A stretch of 64,000 bases of DNA from a virus (taxonomy: Duplodnaviria > Heunggongvirae > Uroviricota > Caudoviricetes), in the IMG/VR virus record IMGVR_UViG_3300025858_000011, one strand, 5' to 3'. The notes beneath the pieces are model-generated. The model was not told where the DNA came from. It saw nothing but the letters and a program-made list of their open reading frames with translations, and did not search any database. Below are positions 3,597 through 30,138 of this stretch, piece after piece. Numbering within the stretch: position 1 is the stretch's first letter; the number at the start of each line of letters is the position of its first letter. A program made the translations under genes and the position numbers.

Positions 3597-4505
3597 TTAA
3601 AAATATTTGTGAACATCTAATGTATTTGAGACTCTCATGCCCTTTGCACGAAACTCATCAATCCAGGCCGTAGTGAGGTGTTCAAAGCCAGTGACGGGAG
3701 AAGAGGCGTTTTCCAAGAAGATCAATTTCCTGCATAGATCGTCTCCCCCGTATTTTACAATGTCACGCGCCGTATTTGCGAGACAATGTGATGAAGCCTC
3801 CCCCATAAGAAGAATAAGATCACCACCAGAAATTACTTGGATAAATGGGGTATTAACCATAGTGCTGGGGTCACTAGGATCTGGCACTTCCGCCTCGATG
3901 GCTGAATAATGCTCAGTTAAAAAGTTGGACCCCTTTGTTACGTAATCAACATTTGCCTGTTGAGTCTTTTCCCAATTGATTAATGCCTTTGAAATTGCTT
4001 CATGTAGTGCTTGCCCACGAGTCCCAATAATGCAATGCTCTGGCCAAATAAGATGCGGATATTTTCCACTTGCTTCTAGGGCCTGATCATATTCTAATAC
4101 TACCTCATATAAAGTTTTGTTTCCATGAGACTTTATTCGCATGCCAGGAGCGAATACGTTCCAGGTTCCATTTTTTAAAAGGTCATATGACATTAATGTG
4201 AATGGAGCAGGATTTTCTCCATGACTATTGATATACATCTTTGGATGAGAAATATCGAACACTCGATGTGAGTCGAGAGTCACATGGGCATCCTCCAGGG
4301 CATCACCATAATCATCAATGAACTTTGCCCCAGTTACCATGTCCTCATGGGCGTGTTCAACGTAAAGTGAGCCACGCCAATTGTGGTCTACTAAGGCAGC
4401 CTCAGCATCAGCGGGTAGGCCTGCTGGTATTGGAGTCTCATTTCCTTTTTTACAAAAATCATCCTCCGGGTCGATAATGACCAGGTGGATCTTTTTCTTA
4501 GACAT
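3597..4505 (-). CDS. isochorismatase-family cysteine hydrolase (nicotinamidase-like)
   Basis: 302 aa; HLVIIDPEDDF (cf. ALLVIDMQNDF), TKGSNF Lys, GEASSHCLANT Cys give a D/K/C triad. Confidence 0.55.
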   Translation of the reverse strand: MSKKKIHLVIIDPEDDFCKKGNETPIPAGLPADAEAALVDHNWRGSLYVEHAHEDMVTGAKFIDDYGDALEDAHVTLDSHRVFDISHPKMYINSHGENPAPFTLMSYDLLKNGTWNVFAPGMRIKSHGNKTLYEVVLEYDQALEASGKYPHLIWPEHCIIGTRGQALHEAISKALINWEKTQQANVDYVTKGSNFLTEHYSAIEAEVPDPSDPSTMVNTPFIQVISGGDLILLMGEASSHCLANTARDIVKYGGDDLCRKLIFLENASSPVTGFEHLTTAWIDEFRAKGMRVSNTLDVHKYF

Positions 4506-4515
4506 ATTATGTCCT

Positions 4516-5226
4516 TTAATTTATTTGTATTACTTTATTATATAATAATGTGAATTTGTCATTTATCTCAATGTCTTGGTGAAAATGACCGAAAAACCAT
4601 TTGGTAAATTTGACTTTGGACTGAATCTCATCAAAATATTTACGTAGACCTACTTCGAAACCTGCTTTACCTAGGATTTCATCATACATAAATATCTTGC
4701 ATAGTTGCTCAAATACAGAACTTGGGCAAGTATGGGTAATGATAAAGTCTACTTCTGGATATTTCTCCAAAGTGAATAATCCATTCTCCATCTCCGCGTA
4801 TGAGGGAAGTTCTTCCTCCCACCAAGATACAAATTCGGTTCTATAGGCCTTGTCTATTGAGGCGGCTCCACCGAATGTAAAAAAAGTCTTACCTTCGATA
4901 TTATAAACATTGCCTCGATACAGGCGAAAAATGGAATCAGAAACTATACCCACAACGGAACCAAACATTTCCTGGATTGGAAGCCTATTTAAACGATAAA
5001 AGTTTTCGTGATTTCCATCGACGAAAAGTGTAGTCCACGGTTTATCGTTATACCAATCGATGAGATATTTTTCTGTCTCGGTTGGTACTGTATCCCAAAT
5101 TATTCCCATGTCCCCGGCAACAATTACGTAATCACTCTTTGTAAGAGTTTTTCCAATTGGAAAACTCTTACTGGATAAATCATTAAAATCAATTACCCCG
5201 TGTTTGTCACCTGTAACAAATATCAA
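4516..5226 (-). CDS. calcineurin-like metallophosphoesterase
   Basis: 236 aa; GDKHG, GDMG, DGNHE, GHFH metallophosphatase motifs. Confidence 0.7.
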   Translation of the reverse strand: MIFVTGDKHGVIDFNDLSSKSFPIGKTLTKSDYVIVAGDMGIIWDTVPTETEKYLIDWYNDKPWTTLFVDGNHENFYRLNRLPIQEMFGSVVGIVSDSIFRLYRGNVYNIEGKTFFTFGGAASIDKAYRTEFVSWWEEELPSYAEMENGLFTLEKYPEVDFIITHTCPSSVFEQLCKIFMYDEILGKAGFEVGLRKYFDEIQSKVKFTKWFFGHFHQDIEINDKFTLLYNKVIQIN

Positions 5227-5250
5227 TATAACTCCTTTCTATTTTTAAAA

Positions 5251-5279
5251 TAAAAAAAGGGGATATTGCCAATCCCCTT
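5251..5279 (-). terminator. intrinsic terminator (minus)
   Basis: GGGGAT-ATTGCCA-ATCCCC hairpin followed by T7 on minus strand, after structured RNA/tRNA-Leu pair. Confidence 0.6.
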
Positions 5280-5289
5280 GTTTCTGGTG

Positions 5290-5530
5290 TGCTATTACGC
5301 CAAAGAGCCGGTTTCCGCTCCTATGGCCTAGGAGTTTCGGACGGCCTGCCGAGGTCAATTCCCCGGTTCTTACGGCCTCAATCGGGGTTGCCTCCAGCAC
5401 CCTAGGATTGCACCACGAATTGTGCATATCCGTTCACACTACTATTTTCCCTTCGTAGTGCTAGCATCGGTGGCCGGAGCGATGAGCTCACTCTTTAAAT
5501 GATGGCTGCTTCTAAGCCAACATCCCAGAT
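5290..5530 (-). ncRNA. unclassified GC-rich structured RNA downstream of tRNA-Leu pair
   Basis: ~240 nt, GC-rich versus AT-rich surroundings, many self-complementary segments (ccccggttcttacggcctcaatcgggg, cctatggcctagg), no credible ORF, ends at intrinsic terminator. Confidence 0.35.
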
Positions 5531-5533
5531 TTG

Positions 5534-5616
5534 TACCGAAAGCTGGACTTGAACCAGCATAGCTTACGCCAATGGTTTTTGAAACCATCGTGTCTACCAA
5601 ATTCCACCATTTCGGT
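5534..5616 (-). tRNA. tRNA-Leu(CAA)
   Basis: cloverleaf by eye: acceptor ACCGAAA/TTTCGGT, anticodon loop TTCAAAA, long variable arm, T-loop TTCAAGT. Confidence 0.75.
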
Positions 5617-28297: not shown

Positions 28298-28567
28298 TTA
28301 CGCTTGTGCCATCATTGATGTAGTAATTTTATAACCGTCAATGTATGAGACGCTCGTTACCTTCTTTGGAAGAGACCAAGACTTAAGTGTTACATAAGGC
28401 TTCTTGGCCCCTTTAACCCTATACTCAGTGGTGCTCTCACTGCTGCCAACACCACTGGAATTACTGCTGGCGTCAGTATCGGATGTACTAGATGCACAAT
28501 TACACCAGATTTCACCTAATGCCGCCAGAAGAAACAGAATAGCTAGTCGAACTGCCAGTTTTTTCAC
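28298..28567 (-). CDS. small secreted protein / lipoprotein
   Basis: signal peptide MKKLAVRLAILFLLAALG. Confidence 0.45.
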   Translation of the reverse strand: MKKLAVRLAILFLLAALGEIWCNCASSTSDTDASSNSSGVGSSESTTEYRVKGAKKPYVTLKSWSLPKKVTSVSYIDGYKITTSMMAQA

Positions 28568-28782
28568 GCAGCTCCTCCGTAAATTTGTAATTTCCCCTAA
28601 TTATTTCCCCGAACTCCCGTTTATAAATGGGCCTCCAGGACGGTTTATTAGTATCATACAAGATTGGCGTAGGCCACTTATAATAATACATATTAATTCC
28701 AAGGACGCGTACTCCAAATTCATCCATATCATTAATAATCCATTGAACTCGGAGTACTTTTTCTATCAAAAATCTGAAAAAT

Positions 28783-29322
28783 TTATCCTTCATATGGTGC
28801 GTCGTGCTCCTTCCAGGCGACTACGATTCCTATACCGTCTTCATGGTCCCACCCATTATCAAATCCGATGCCGTACCCATAATAACAAGAGTCGGTCCAT
28901 CGATGTCCCTTTTGCTCGAAAGTAACACTATACATCTTTGACACTTCTGGAAGCCCAATGGTAACCGGAATCCATGGATCTTTTAGGCAAACAATCTCTG
29001 TAAATGCTTTTTCACAATTATGATAATTTATTGCCGCATCTTTGGCGGCTTTAATAGAACATATCATCTTGTTACGATGGTTTACTTCTGCACGGAAATG
29101 ATCCGCGCTATTGTGATAATGCATCGCCGCGTCTTTCGCTTCAGATAATTTCTTTCTGAGATTAGCAAGCTCATTTTCAAGCTCAACACGTATTAGATTG
29201 GATTCATTATACATATGCCGAAATTCGTCAGCCTCTTTCTTAGCCTTTACCAGTTCGATTTCGAGGATACTGATGCCGCCGACGCCCATGTTTGCTGTAT
29301 TTATTTCAGTGTGCTCACTCAT
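28783..29322 (-). CDS. coiled-coil hypothetical protein (179 aa)
   Basis: ORF. Confidence 0.5.
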   Translation of the reverse strand: MSEHTEINTANMGVGGISILEIELVKAKKEADEFRHMYNESNLIRVELENELANLRKKLSEAKDAAMHYHNSADHFRAEVNHRNKMICSIKAAKDAAINYHNCEKAFTEIVCLKDPWIPVTIGLPEVSKMYSVTFEQKGHRWTDSCYYGYGIGFDNGWDHEDGIGIVVAWKEHDAPYEG

Positions 29323-29506
29323 ATATTATCCGATTTAAATTGTTCAAAGTTATATCCAAATCCGTCTTCATACATTGGGACATCCTGGAACTCTGCTAAA
29401 ACCTTAGCAGCTTCTTCATGAGCGGAGTGATTTTGACAGCAACTGCATGTAATCTGCCAATGCCTGGCGAATTTTTGTTTCATAATTTAATACTCCAACT
29501 AAAAAG

Positions 29507-29578
29507 TACTCCGAGTGGGATTCGAACCCACGATGCAGGGTCGAAAACCCTGAGACTTTACCACTTGTCGATCGGAGC
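29507..29578 (-). tRNA. tRNA-Glu(TTC)
   Basis: acceptor GCTCCGA/TCGGAGT, anticodon stem CAGGG/CCCTG loop TTTTCGA, T GTGGGTTCGAATCCCAC. Confidence 0.7.
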
Positions 29579-29598
29579 AAAAAGGGGGGTTAATCCCC
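29576..29598 (-). terminator. intrinsic terminator (minus)
   Basis: GAGGGGGATTAACCCCCCTT + T5 on minus strand. Confidence 0.6.
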
Positions 29599-29628
29599 CT
29601 CATTCACCACTGTAATGCCATAAGGCAT

Positions 29629-30138
29629 TTACACCACCTCCTGCATGAGTGCGTCGCACTCAAGTTTATACTTCCATATTGTTAATGACACGTCAAGTGC
29701 TGCCTGTAAATCTTTTACCAGGAATACACTATTATGTGTAGTTCCTAATAGATGTTTTATCAGCATTTCGCGTGCTAATATTGACGCTTTTGCTAGCCCA
29801 AGGTCGGCTTCAATTAAGGATTTTGATACATCCGGATCGATAAAGACTATTAACTTTCGAAATGAGTCTTTCATTCTTCCGATGGCCATCGCGGCTTCCA
29901 TTAATGATATAAACGCGTAGGTTTCATCAGTAATTGCAAAAATAACTATGTCATCATTAGCAAGATGACATATTTCTTTATCTGAGTCCGCGGGTGTCCA
30001 CATTCCATCAGCTACCTGAGGATTAAAAAAAGGAATACCTCTAACAGTATACTGATCTACGAACGCTTGTCGCCAGATGGACTTTCCACATGTACCGAAA
30101 AGTCCGATGAAGTTACGGTCTTGTTGGTAAATCTCCAA
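29629..30138 (-). CDS. hypothetical protein, possibly nucleoside deoxyribosyltransferase-like
   Basis: 169 aa; IGLFGTCGKSIWR...IVIFAITDE weak resemblance to the Rossmann-like Ndt/DUF4062 fold. Confidence 0.3.
   Translation of the reverse strand: MEIYQQDRNFIGLFGTCGKSIWRQAFVDQYTVRGIPFFNPQVADGMWTPADSDKEICHLANDDIVIFAITDETYAFISLMEAAMAIGRMKDSFRKLIVFIDPDVSKSLIEADLGLAKASILAREMLIKHLLGTTHNSVFLVKDLQAALDVSLTIWKYKLECDALMQEVV

Follow-up and report, generated by a model that had tools for sequence, protein, structure and literature searches.

Scattered NAD+/ADP-ribose genes and a conserved cassette headed by a nicotinamidase-like gene in an uncultured jumbo-phage-like genome

Introduction

It is already known that large phages habitually carry genes for NAD+ and ADP-ribose (ADPr) metabolism. 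Domains of the Macro, NADAR, SLOG and Nudix families co-occur in big phages, and Iyer, Burroughs, Anantharaman and Aravind (2022, PMC9503650) described a viral NAD+-ADPr network with stand-alone NADAR, Nudix and cREC proteins in the early or RNA-repair region and ARPP and vWA proteins in ADPr-centred neighbourhoods, proposing that it counters ADPr-derived signals and toxins. Phage NADARs neutralise DarTG1 (PMC11257639). NARP1 (Adps and Namat), NARP2 (NAMPT and NMNAT) and NARP3 (PnuC and NadR) are phage-encoded responses to NAD+ depletion that start from nicotinamide or ADP-ribose (ADPR). In the TerY-P triad a TerY-like vWA protein, a PP2C phosphatase and a Ser/Thr kinase form a tight collinear operon, and TerY-P-like modules are stand-alone anti-phage systems (PMC11090510).

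Here we describe at least seven genes for NAD+ breakdown products and ADP-ribose, scattered in a ~204-kb uncultured jumbo-phage-like genome of which 64,000 nucleotides (the window) were analysed. The genes are spread across 27 kb, not contiguous, with 21 tRNA genes interleaved. Stand-alone NADAR, Nudix and cREC proteins, and ARPP with a vWA-like protein, resemble the published network. However, nicotinamidase, isochorismatase and PncA/PncB are unmentioned by Iyer et al., whereas this genome has a PncA-like cassette; their viral DrHyd domains are only of the ADP-ribosyl-cyclase type, whereas those found here are of the PF15891 type; and Macro and SLOG domains were not seen in the window. Unlike NARP1-3 phages, the window holds no NARP enzyme, and a nicotinamidase is the sole entry enzyme. 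The general theme is thus already published, and the novelty is the cassette.

Results

The features discussed below are as follows:

437-2056, minus strand: protein-kinase-like enzyme, 539 aa, C-terminal half uncharacterised (Pkinase E 0.015)
2041-2856, minus strand: PP2C-type protein phosphatase (PF13672, 49.3 bits; cut-off 24)
2853-3587, minus strand: vWA (TerY-like) protein with a MIDAS-type DITGS...T...TDG motif
3597-4505, minus strand: PncA-type nicotinamidase-like cysteine hydrolase, 302 aa, first in the cassette (family profile and catalytic residues)
4516-5226, minus strand: calcineurin-like metallophosphoesterase (PF00149, 35.6 bits; cut-off 21.5)
11142-11591, minus strand: NADAR domain protein, YbiA-type (PF08719, 86.1 bits; cut-off 35.1)
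16639-17142, minus strand: Nudix hydrolase, ADP-ribose pyrophosphatase type (PF00293, 72.4 bits; cut-off 21.1)
20034-21059, minus strand: ARPP-1 domain protein (ARG and rhodanese-phosphatase-associated protein; PF20208, 91.4 bits; cut-off 27)
21061-22578, minus strand: 505-aa protein with C-terminal vWA-like motifs only (DASQS at 340, SDG at 413)
26507-26953, minus strand: NDT1, a nucleoside 2-deoxyribosyltransferase-like protein of the DrHyd superfamily (PF15891, 58.6 bits; cut-off 30)
27258-27581, minus strand: cREC (cyclic-phosphate-processing receiver) domain protein (PF20274, 54 bits; cut-off 27)
29629-30138, minus strand: NDT2, a divergent PF15891-like protein (27.6 bits, just below the cut-off of 30)

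The initial annotation had listed five of these genes (nicotinamidase-like, NADAR, Nudix, NDT1 and NDT2). All five ORFs are real, lie on the minus strand with unchanged coordinates and match JGI's gene predictions for the source contig, including the start of the 167-aa Nudix protein at 17142. Their family assignments hold in profile searches, with the limit that only NADAR, Nudix and NDT1 pass the Pfam cut-offs, while NDT2 and the 'isochorismatase' fall below. The list had missed cREC and ARPP-1 with its vWA-like partner.

The nicotinamidase-like protein reached only 12.6 bits against the Pfam isochorismatase profile (cut-off 27) and was below the NCBIfam cut-offs as well. When its family (3,030 members) was turned into a profile, the only PDB matches were nicotinamidases (Pnc1, 8.7e-9; PncA, 2.8e-7). 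The catalytic triad D11/K190/C240 and the metal site D77/H79/H156 are invariant across the family and align with the Asp-Lys-Cys triad and Asp-His-His metal site of PncA/Pnc1 nicotinamidases (PDB 2h0r, 3pl1, 1ilw, 2wt9). Compared with these enzymes, the phage-like protein is ~80-120 residues longer and has a large insertion between the DxH and WPxHC motifs.

This gene, previously taken as free-standing, is, as judged from gene order and spacing, the head of a widely conserved four-gene operon: nicotinamidase-like (nic), vWA, PP2C and kinase. We found no description of it in the literature. The order recurs in most of 160 loci (80 viral and 80 from bacterial genomes), with homologues of vWA at 147, PP2C at 120 and the kinase at 127 of them; the genes run collinearly, and the median gaps between them are 4, 11 and -4 nt. 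The window's vWA protein, which has a conserved C-terminal tail rich in Ser/Gln, gave no match in the Pfam search; among 15 family members VWA_2 was matched by 7 and VWA by 4 (best 3e-8). The window's kinase match is weak, and all ten of the homologues searched match Pkinase, two of them above its cut-off. The metallophosphoesterase gene lies upstream of the nicotinamidase-like gene at a distance of 10 nt, probably in one transcription unit with it, and holds the same position in an 87%-related phage contig, which keeps the cassette and shows no NADAR over 10 kb upstream. Ten viral loci have a metallophosphoesterase inside the cassette, assigned by its GD/GNHD/GHxH motifs alone, without a Pfam match, and non-orthologous to the window copy.

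Frequent neighbours of the cassette are NAPRTase, NadD, NadE, NMNAT, NrtR, and NADAR or ADP-ribosylglycohydrolase (ARG). Within 7 kb, NAD-synthesis genes turn up at 33/80 viral loci and 23/80 genome loci, and NrtR is present in 39 nic loci; about half of the nic loci have no detectable NAD link. In Armatimonadota, where ARG takes the PP2C position, one operon (L029) reads NrtR-nic-vWA-NADAR-DUF4291-ARG-kinase-NAPRTase-PARG and another (L018) nic-vWA-ARG-kinase-PF15891-NAPRTase.

The vWA-PP2C-kinase architecture is that of the TerY-P defence triads, so the cassette could be a conflict system that the phage carries, for instance to exclude superinfecting phages or to take over the host; its nicotinamidase would then be an effector on the NAD pathway and not a salvage enzyme. 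The cassette's patchy spread over distant bacterial phyla and viral contigs resembles that of mobile conflict systems; the displacement of PP2C by ARG, the variable accessory genes, and one locus with a PARP gene and an NB-ARC/TPR gene as neighbours point the same way. However, a nicotinamidase-like gene always stands ahead of the triad, the kinase's C-terminal half has no recognised zinc ribbon or OB fold, and the PADLOC TerY-P models match no cassette protein; nor did PADLOC tie the cassette to any known system. Moreover, genes of NAD biosynthesis and for the regulator NrtR are the commonest neighbours, rather than nucleases or effectors of other kinds. We consider this explanation improbable.

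The NADAR protein best matches YbiA (2b3w) and NADAR 8bau in the PDB, and phrog_1017 at 1e-40. In the alignment, the positions of catalytic and ligand residues are taken by E31, K38, E105, D111 and W114. Like AdfN and the NADARs of Bas32 and Bas60, which act against DarTG1 (PMC11257639), it has the NADAR fold with the catalytic Glu and Lys and is phage-encoded and free-standing; at the diagnostic position, however, it has Glu (YbiA type), not the His of T4 AdfN or the Asp of the DarT1 antitoxin DarG1. E. coli YbiA hydrolyses guanine-ADPr in vitro yet does not rescue DarT1 toxicity in vivo (PMC11125620), whereas two non-T4 phage NADARs did rescue (PMC11257639). NADAR biochemistry is treated in PMC11543638 and PMC11125620.

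NDT1 and NDT2 share weak similarity. PF15891 was found in 14 of 20 NDT2 homologues, and a Foldseek search with the NDT2 AF2 model (pLDDT 91.8) gave plant TIR domains and the PF15891 structure 4mcj as top matches; the model has a fold of the TIR/NDT class. The closest known class is nucleoside 2-deoxyribosyltransferase/Rcl/TIR (TIR-DrHyd-SLOG class; PDB 4mcj, YtoQ 8of6). Elsewhere PF15891 genes are members of NAD-salvage operons. The cultured Sinorhizobium phage Phosso has the operon NAPRTase...Nudix-NMNAT-isochorismatase-hyp-PF15891, and gp225 of cultured phage Tunturi_5, adjoining the portal gene, fuses PF15891 to ART-PolyVal, an ADP-ribosyltransferase. NAD/ADPr genes accompany NDT1 homologues at 15/80 viral loci.

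The remaining 65/80 NDT1 loci have no detectable NAD link, and in other big phages NDT1 homologues adjoin sugar-nucleotide or DNA-methylase genes. These data could reflect housekeeping genes without a common role that a large genome has brought together by chance. In that case NADAR would be an N-glycosidase like YbiA that deals with damaged riboflavin intermediates, Nudix would be a general house-cleaning enzyme, the PF15891 proteins would work in the salvage of nucleosides or the modification of DNA bases, and the isochorismatase-like protein would be a generic hydrolase. The NADAR indeed passes the riboflavin-intermediate N-glycosidase model TIGR02464 (80 bits; cut-off 73.7), NADAR-like genes are common (701 INPHARED records; 48% of medium and jumbo phages, PMC9503650), and the genes are non-contiguous here. 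Against this, the same families form tight operons and fusions in unrelated lineages, and about half of the nic loci show a tie to NAPRTase, NadE, NadD and NrtR; the nic family also keeps the nicotinamidase-specific metal site. We give chance co-occurrence a low probability.

Residues 64-86 of the Nudix protein form a canonical Nudix box, and Pro is found at +16. In the PDB, the five top-scoring hits were ADP-ribose pyrophosphatases without exception, and its best NCBIfam model, YffH/AdpP, is below cut-off. Nudix enzymes of this type convert ADPR to AMP and ribose-5-phosphate. The cREC gene is separated from NDT1 only by a tRNA-Pro gene (27177-27250). One NDT1 locus has the order cREC...NDT1-ARPP, with the ARPP homologue directly after that of NDT1. 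In the window, the 505-aa protein gene lies just upstream of ARPP-1 and stops 1 nt before its start; the protein had no match in Pfam, NCBIfam or PADLOC and is tentatively vWA-like from its motifs.

The interleaved tRNA genes suggest a different role, in phage tRNA maintenance and not in countering NAD-targeting immunity: NADAR, Nudix and cREC would process the ADPR-cyclic-phosphate and similar molecules left by NAD+-dependent 2'-phosphotransferases in the healing of broken tRNAs. Just past the window start are genes for an RNA ligase (PF09414) and a CCA-adding enzyme, along with a MazG-like gene, and RNA ligase, Thg1 and radical-SAM genes repeatedly adjoin the cassette in viral loci. cREC by definition processes cyclic phosphate, and in Iyer et al. 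(2022) RNA repair based on KptA or sirtuin is linked with cREC, Nudix, 2H and NADAR. However, a Pfam search of the window gave no KptA/Tpt1, sirtuin or 2H domain, and neither the nicotinamidase, with its link to NAPRTase, NadD and NadE, nor the PF15891-ART fusion is explained. We consider this reading unlikely.

Discussion

Because each family is common in big phages, the mere co-occurrence of these genes is unsurprising, and the NAD+/ADPr link comes from operons and fusions elsewhere. There the same families are joined to NAPRTase, NadD, NadE, NMNAT, NrtR, ARG, PARG and ADP-ribosyltransferase, independent support for the earlier view of one NAD+/ADP-ribose network. The functional tie is thus supported by context. 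The claim that the enzymes recycle ADPR and nicotinamide is unsupported or overstated, since the window has no NAD+-rebuilding enzyme and an ADPRase-type Nudix would destroy ADPR. We put at about even the chance that the tRNA-rich accessory arm of this genome encodes a dispersed NAD+/ADP-ribose toolkit. Counting against it are the TIGR02464 match, the scatter of the genes among tRNAs, the lack of NAD+-resynthesis enzymes in the window and 10 kb beyond, the missing NADAR upstream in the 87%-related contig, the nic and NDT1 loci that lack an NAD link, the failure of YbiA to rescue DarT1 in vivo and the absence of a PADLOC match for the cassette; host, expression timing and the contig's viral nature are also inferred.

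The nicotinamidase route to NAD+ requires PncB, NadD and NadE. Neither the window nor a further 10 kb beyond its start yielded NAPRTase, NadD, NadE, NMNAT, NAMPT, Adps/Namat or PnuC/NadR, and PncB, NadD and NadE would therefore have to be supplied by the host or by the genome's remaining part. Many related viral loci have these genes adjoining the cassette.

A dispersed toolkit would let the phage clear products of NAD+ cleavage and ADP-ribosylation during infection. NADAR would strip ADP-ribose off guanine bases or cut ribosyl N-glycosides, and Nudix would degrade free ADPR and related dinucleotides. cREC may open cyclic-phosphate ADPR or RNA ends, and the PF15891 enzymes may act on a pyridine or ADPR-derived nucleotide by cleaving or exchanging an N-glycosidic bond in it. 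The nicotinamidase would convert nicotinamide to nicotinate, supplying the host Preiss-Handler route and removing a product inhibitor, with the vWA/PP2C/kinase triad probably a phosphorylation switch. A counter-defence role is plausible: the net outcome would be NAD+ homeostasis and a blunting of ADPR-based host immunity.

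Profile support for the NAD/ADP-ribose genes

The initial annotation had singled out five genes as acting on NAD-derived or ADP-ribosyl metabolites, and all five ORFs were found where it had placed them. When the family assignments were checked by profile search, the NADAR protein, the Nudix hydrolase and the first of two nucleoside-2-deoxyribosyltransferase-like proteins (NDT1) scored over their Pfam cut-offs. The second such protein (NDT2) stayed just below the cut-off, and the isochorismatase-like hydrolase failed in Pfam but belongs to a family whose profile recovered nicotinamidases. 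The observation holds. The original list lacked cREC, ARPP-1 and the operon context of the nicotinamidase-like gene (nic; 3597–4505, minus strand).

Genes around the NAD/ADP-ribose set, with profile scores
11142–11591, minus strand: NADAR, PF08719 86.1 bits (cut-off 35.1), TIGR02464 80 bits (cut-off 73.7)
16639–17142, minus strand: Nudix hydrolase, PF00293 72.4 bits (cut-off 21.1)
20034–21059, minus strand: ARPP-1, PF20208 91.4 bits (cut-off 27)
21061–22578, minus strand: gene before ARPP-1, 505-aa protein with vWA-like DxSxS and SDG motifs
26507–26953, minus strand: NDT1, PF15891 58.6 bits (cut-off 30)
27258–27581, minus strand: cREC cyclic-phosphate-processing domain gene, PF20274 54 bits (cut-off 27)
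29629–30138, minus strand: NDT2, PF15891 27.6 bits (cut-off 30)

The ORFs at 21061–22578 and 20034–21059 were also considered as NAMPT and NatV, and these identities were ruled out; they encode the uncharacterized 505-aa protein and ARPP-1. A pattern scan of IMG/VR for ARPP relatives returned none. The cREC gene and NDT1 are set apart by a tRNA-Pro only.

The best solved relatives of the NADAR protein are E. coli YbiA and the P. nicotianae NADAR. Its catalytic Glu and Lys (E31 and K38) are conserved, and E105 aligns with the YbiA-type Glu (E125 of 8bau). The residue at this position separates the NADAR subfamilies, being Glu in the YbiA type, Asp in the DarT1-antitoxin type and His in the T4 type (PMC11543638). 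Having Glu here, instead of the Asp or His of the DarT1-antitoxin/AdfN type, the window NADAR is of the YbiA type as judged from its sequence. E. coli YbiA did not rescue cells from DarT1 toxicity (PMC11125620). No DarT or other ADP-ribosyltransferase domain occurred in the Pfam results for the window genes.

The Nudix protein has a canonical Nudix box (GX5EX7REUXEEXGU, residues 64–86). A proline about 16 residues past the box is the signature of ADP-ribose pyrophosphatases (ADPRases), and P102 lies at +16, within an SPG motif. The top five PDB matches are all ADP-ribose pyrophosphatases, and the ADPRase model TIGR00052 is the top NCBIfam model, though at 45.9 bits it is below its cut-off of 79.55. 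The initial annotation had this enzyme recycle ADP-ribose (ADPR), a role that has to be reversed, as an ADPRase-type enzyme would destroy ADPR instead.

The nicotinamidase-like gene lies in a four-gene cassette

The 302-aa nic product scored 12.6 bits against PF00857 (cut-off 27) and 22.4 bits against NCBIfam NF008623 (cut-off 174), below both cut-offs. It has 3,030 relatives, and some members of the family carry PF00857. Matches of the family profile in the PDB were confined to nicotinamidases. Residues D11, K190 and C240, invariant across 28 sequences, correspond in the alignment to D8, K122 and C167 of Pnc1, the catalytic Asp-Lys-Cys triad; D77, H79 and H156 are also invariant and align to Pnc1 D51, H53 and H94, the nicotinamidase-specific Asp-His-His metal site. 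The nic product is thus PncA-like and a predicted nicotinamidase.

Downstream of nic follow vWA, PP2C and kinase-like genes, with gaps of 9, −4 and −16 nt, and upstream, across a 10-nt gap, lies a calcineurin-like phosphoesterase gene. The PP2C gene matched PP2C_2 at 49.3 bits. The other two calls are made at family level, with VWA_2 in 7 of 15 relatives and VWA in 4 of 15 for the vWA protein, and a Pkinase match in all 10 relatives tested for the kinase. Against PDB sequences, the vWA profile gave no match and the kinase only a weak match to Rio2. The vWA protein ends in a conserved Ser/Gln-rich C-terminal tail, which could plausibly serve as a phospho-acceptor.

With a vWA protein, a PP2C and a Ser/Thr kinase encoded collinearly in one operon at near-zero gaps, the cassette resembles the TerY-P triads (PMC11090510), an analogy that allows it to be a conflict system. 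However, the C-terminal zinc ribbon/OB fold was not detected in the cassette kinase, and the curated TerY-P models in PADLOC were unmatched. For the cassette, ARPP, PF15891 and cREC proteins, PADLOC reported no match to a known defence system; its sole match was a weak one to PDC-S10 for the metallophosphoesterase.

A nicotinamidase is useful only if PncB, NadD and NadE are supplied by the host or by the other ~130 kb of this genome. Precomputed Pfam results for genes at window positions ~1,100–61,400 and for 10 kb beyond the window start contained none of the gene pairs of the phage NAD+ reconstitution pathways, namely Adps and Namat (NARP1), NAMPT and NMNAT (NARP2) or PnuC and NadR (NARP3). 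The window is therefore not a NARP1, NARP2 or NARP3 locus. In tblastn, representatives of NAPRT, NadD, NadE, NMNAT, ADP-ribosylglycohydrolase (ARG) and PARG likewise gave no match in the window, and NAPRTase was also lacking in the 10 kb before it. The earlier suggestion that these genes recycle nicotinamide and ADPR is consequently not supported for the stretch examined, as it holds no NAD+-rebuilding enzyme. ARG-centric ADP-ribosylation-reversal systems, with a core of ARG and an NrtR/WYL regulator (Iyer et al. 2022), also differ from the window, where ARG and NrtR are absent.

The cassette is widespread in bacteria and uncultured viruses

Scans for relatives of nic matched at least 343 contig stretches from bacterial and archaeal genomes, each species being represented by one genome, and at least 163 from viral contigs. 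From these, 160 loci were fetched, 80 from bacterial genomes and 80 from IMG/VR. Of the 160 loci, 147 had a homologue of the window vWA gene, 120 of the PP2C gene and 127 of the kinase gene. These genes were nearly always collinear on a single strand, as nic, vWA, PP2C and kinase, and the median gaps between them were 4, 11 and −4 nt. Hosts of the cassette include Armatimonadota, Myxococcota, Desulfobacterota, Burkholderiales and Patescibacteria. In INPHARED the nic family was confined to four records, all uncultured. All flanking ORFs were then clustered without bias, with Pfam checks on representatives.

Neighbours of the cassette in the 160 loci
NrtR-type Nudix regulator: 39 loci
NAPRTase: 38–41 loci, within 7 kb
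Glutamine-dependent NAD synthetase (NadE): 21 loci
NadD-like: 11 loci
NADAR: 10 loci
Metallophosphoesterase: 10 loci, by motifs only, with no Pfam match
NMNAT-like: 9 loci
RNA ligase: 7 loci
Thg1: 6 loci
Radical SAM: 6 loci

At least one NAD+ synthesis gene lay within 7 kb in 33 of 80 viral and 23 of 80 genome loci. Three Armatimonadota operons show nic-like, NADAR and PF15891 genes to be contiguous in bacteria.

Gene order in three Armatimonadota operons
L029: NrtR, nic, vWA, NADAR, DUF4291, ADP-ribosylglycohydrolase, kinase, NAPRTase, PARG
L018: nic, vWA, ADP-ribosylglycohydrolase, kinase, PF15891, NAPRTase
L084: nic, vWA, NADAR, ARG-like, kinase, GIY-YIG, NAPRTase

In all three, an ADP-ribosylglycohydrolase occupies the place that PP2C has in the phage cassettes. 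The bacterial versions have both ARG and NrtR, as ARG-centric systems do, and the Nudix of these operons is the sensor domain of the NrtR regulator. The GIY-YIG gene of L084 is homing-endonuclease-like and is inserted between kinase and NAPRTase. Another bacterial locus, on a Chthonomonadaceae contig of 999,907 bp (L008), has a WGR+PARP gene and a BTAD/NB-ARC/TPR STAND-type gene near the cassette; its NAPRTase is also near, in divergent orientation, and its PP2C, of 612 aa, is possibly fused with a vWA domain.

The 87%-related phage contig L182 retains the cassette and the downstream RNA-ligase synteny, and no NADAR was found in it within 10 kb upstream. Since the cassette is kept there with no NADAR nearby, the gene set is not inherited as a block.

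PF15891 proteins are partly associated with NAD/ADP-ribose genes

The NDT1 family comprises about 2,400 strongly conserved proteins. By structure comparison, the AF2 model of NDT1 (pLDDT 88.8) is nearest to 4mcj and YtoQ, for which the PDB entries state no function, and is more distant from nucleoside deoxyribosyltransferases, Rcl, MilB and TIR domains. The NDT2 model (pLDDT 91.8) resembles plant TIR domains and 4mcj at a TM of ~0.5, and PF15891 is annotated in 14 of 20 NDT2 homologues. Because the two families matched each other by hhalign at a low probability (8.7%), the kinship of NDT1 and NDT2 rests on Pfam and fold. E67, E84 and E93 are invariant in the PF15891-type family; deoxyribosyltransferases use a Glu nucleophile.

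The NDT1 family occurs in 24 INPHARED records, mostly jumbo or mega phages. In the cultured Sinorhizobium phage Phosso, the PF15891 gene is the last of an operon, after NAPRTase, Nudix, NMNAT, isochorismatase and a hypothetical gene. In the cultured Tunturiibacter phage Tunturi_5, gp225 (L179, 3995–7783; 1,262 aa), which adjoins the portal gene, has an N-terminal PF15891 domain (89 bits) fused to an ART-PolyVal ADP-ribosyltransferase (112 bits); its record calls it a MutT/NUDIX hydrolase, and Pfam found no Nudix domain in it. Of 80 IMG/VR loci that hold NDT1 relatives, NAD/ADP-ribose genes lie within 7 kb in 15. Examples are Phosso-type operons (L262, L263), a NAPRTase directly upstream (L242), an NMNAT ~0.4 kb downstream (L250, L251) and a cREC...NDT1-ARPP arrangement (L243). 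No such link was seen within 7 kb in the remaining 65, and two inspected large-phage contexts were sugar-nucleotide or DNA-methylase neighbourhoods. The association of PF15891 with NAD/ADP-ribose genes is real but partial, and these contextual links are a first functional handle on a large uncharacterized family.

The genes lie in a divergent jumbo-phage-like genome

The window comes from a contig of 204,345 bp (JGI 3300009692 Ga0116171_10000009), and an assembly of the same size was found in at least two other samples. From ~0.2 to 42 kb, minus-strand genes are interspersed with 21 tRNA genes.

Other features of the window
5467–5539, minus strand: rRNA-like element, ~73-nt free-standing 23S rRNA GTPase-associated centre (L11-binding H43–H44 domain)
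5533–33717, minus strand: tRNA array, 21 tRNAs among small ORFs, with two tRNA-Ile(tat), tRNA-Lys(ttt, ctt) and two tRNA-Leu
7702–7995: ribosomal L7/L12-like protein, weak PF00542
8180–8435 and 19726–19944, minus strand: group I introns, 72 and 81.6 bits
9136–9714: dockerin type I domain protein
17236–17709: peptide deformylase
25669–26107, minus strand: full-length GOLLD RNA, RF02032 165.5 bits (gathering 150)
30564–32479, minus strand: adjacent Band_7/SPFH gene pair, 314 and 323–324 aa
44815–59378, plus strand: large-protein block, 693, 746, 380 aa and others
59375–60706: ATP-dependent ligase with LigD_N domain, after the large plus-strand block

From the tRNA array and introns, the GOLLD RNA, the phage-family NADAR (phrog_1017) and a DUF5906 primase of phage type, we infer that the window belongs to a jumbo-phage-like element of viral nature. 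By megablast it had no close cultured relative, the sole match being a 34–40-mer of the 23S-like sequence. The large plus-strand proteins had no PHROG match of known function, one of them having weak matches to families of unknown function, and the two searched by tblastn had no match in INPHARED. A 40-mer of the window had no exact match in IMG/VR. To judge from these searches, the element diverges strongly from known phages. The dockerin gene hints at a cellulosome-bearing, Clostridia-like host.

One intron (19726–19944) lies directly 3′ of the ARPP-1 stop codon, and the other adjoins a plus-strand ORF of 177 aa (8426–8959). The GOLLD RNA is ~400 nt downstream of NDT1 and is overlapped by a probably spurious ORF of 109 aa. 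The Band_7/SPFH pair is directly downstream, in the direction of transcription, of NDT2 and a 107-aa ORF. The 23S-like element, directly 3′ of tRNA-Leu(caa) and in the same sense as its flanking genes, matches positions 1082–1155 of the Rfam LSU model (33 bits, E 7.5e-9), and 34–40 nt of it are 97.5–100% identical to bacterial 23S rRNA. A role as mimic or decoy of an rRNA domain is conceivable. An L7/L12-like protein is also encoded in this genome, and two L12-like genes are present in L182.

The genes just outside the window start include those for a MazG-like protein, an RNA ligase and a CCA-adding enzyme. Such surroundings of tRNAs, RNA ligase and CCA enzyme support the alternative that the NAD/ADP-ribose genes clear by-products of NAD+-dependent RNA repair, but KptA and sirtuin, which also bear on it, were not seen in the window.

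Discussion

NAD+ is a central point of contention in the conflict of bacteria with phages, and three phage NAD+ reconstitution pathways and several enzymes that reverse ADP-ribosylation have recently been characterized. The tie of the genes described here to NAD+/ADP-ribose metabolism is well supported at family level. How the phage uses them can be suggested in five steps. NADAR would strip ADP-ribose from guanine bases or other N-ribosyl linkages, the ADPRase-type Nudix would break down free ADPR and related dinucleotides, and cREC would open cyclic phosphates. The PF15891 enzymes may cut or swap the N-glycosidic bond of a pyridine or ADPR-derived nucleotide, and the nicotinamidase would divert nicotinamide to nicotinate under the control of a vWA/PP2C/kinase switch. 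We favour this reading as the most economical. It fits the proposal that the Macro, NADAR, SLOG and Nudix proteins of large phages act against ADP-ribose-derived immune molecules (PMC9503650), and the demonstrated activity of some phage NADARs against DarTG1 (PMC11257639). Counter-defence, the role first proposed for the five genes, is plausible.

An NAD/ADP-ribose toolkit in a jumbo phage is of a kind already described, and the new element is the nic-vWA-PP2C/ARG-kinase cassette. In the limited literature collection searched, no report of a system combining a nicotinamidase or isochorismatase with vWA and PP2C was found. The 2022 survey of viral NAD-ADP-ribose systems does not mention nicotinamidase, isochorismatase or PncA/PncB (Iyer et al. 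2022, PMC9503650), and phage pncB-nadD-nadE clusters have already been noted (PMC11662467). Tentatively, and with more doubt than confidence, we propose that the cassette, with PP2C or ARG, is an undescribed, widespread module gating the entry of nicotinamide into the Preiss-Handler pathway. In huge phages, where NAPRTase, NadD and NadE genes often accompany it, the module would be a fourth, regulated route for rebuilding NAD+ after immune depletion. The PF15891 proteins would be accessory glycosidases or transglycosidases, with NAD-derived nucleotides, perhaps cyclic ADPR signals, as their substrates.

The locus is a concrete, well-supported example of an NAD/ADP-ribose toolkit in a very divergent jumbo-phage-like genome. 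Its cassette couples a PncA-like enzyme with a kinase/phosphatase/vWA switch, often beside a full Preiss-Handler pathway. Should nicotinamide salvage prove to be under its control, the cassette would represent a new, regulated module for NAD+ salvage, and a candidate anti-defence pathway that runs via nicotinate and not via NMN or ADPR.
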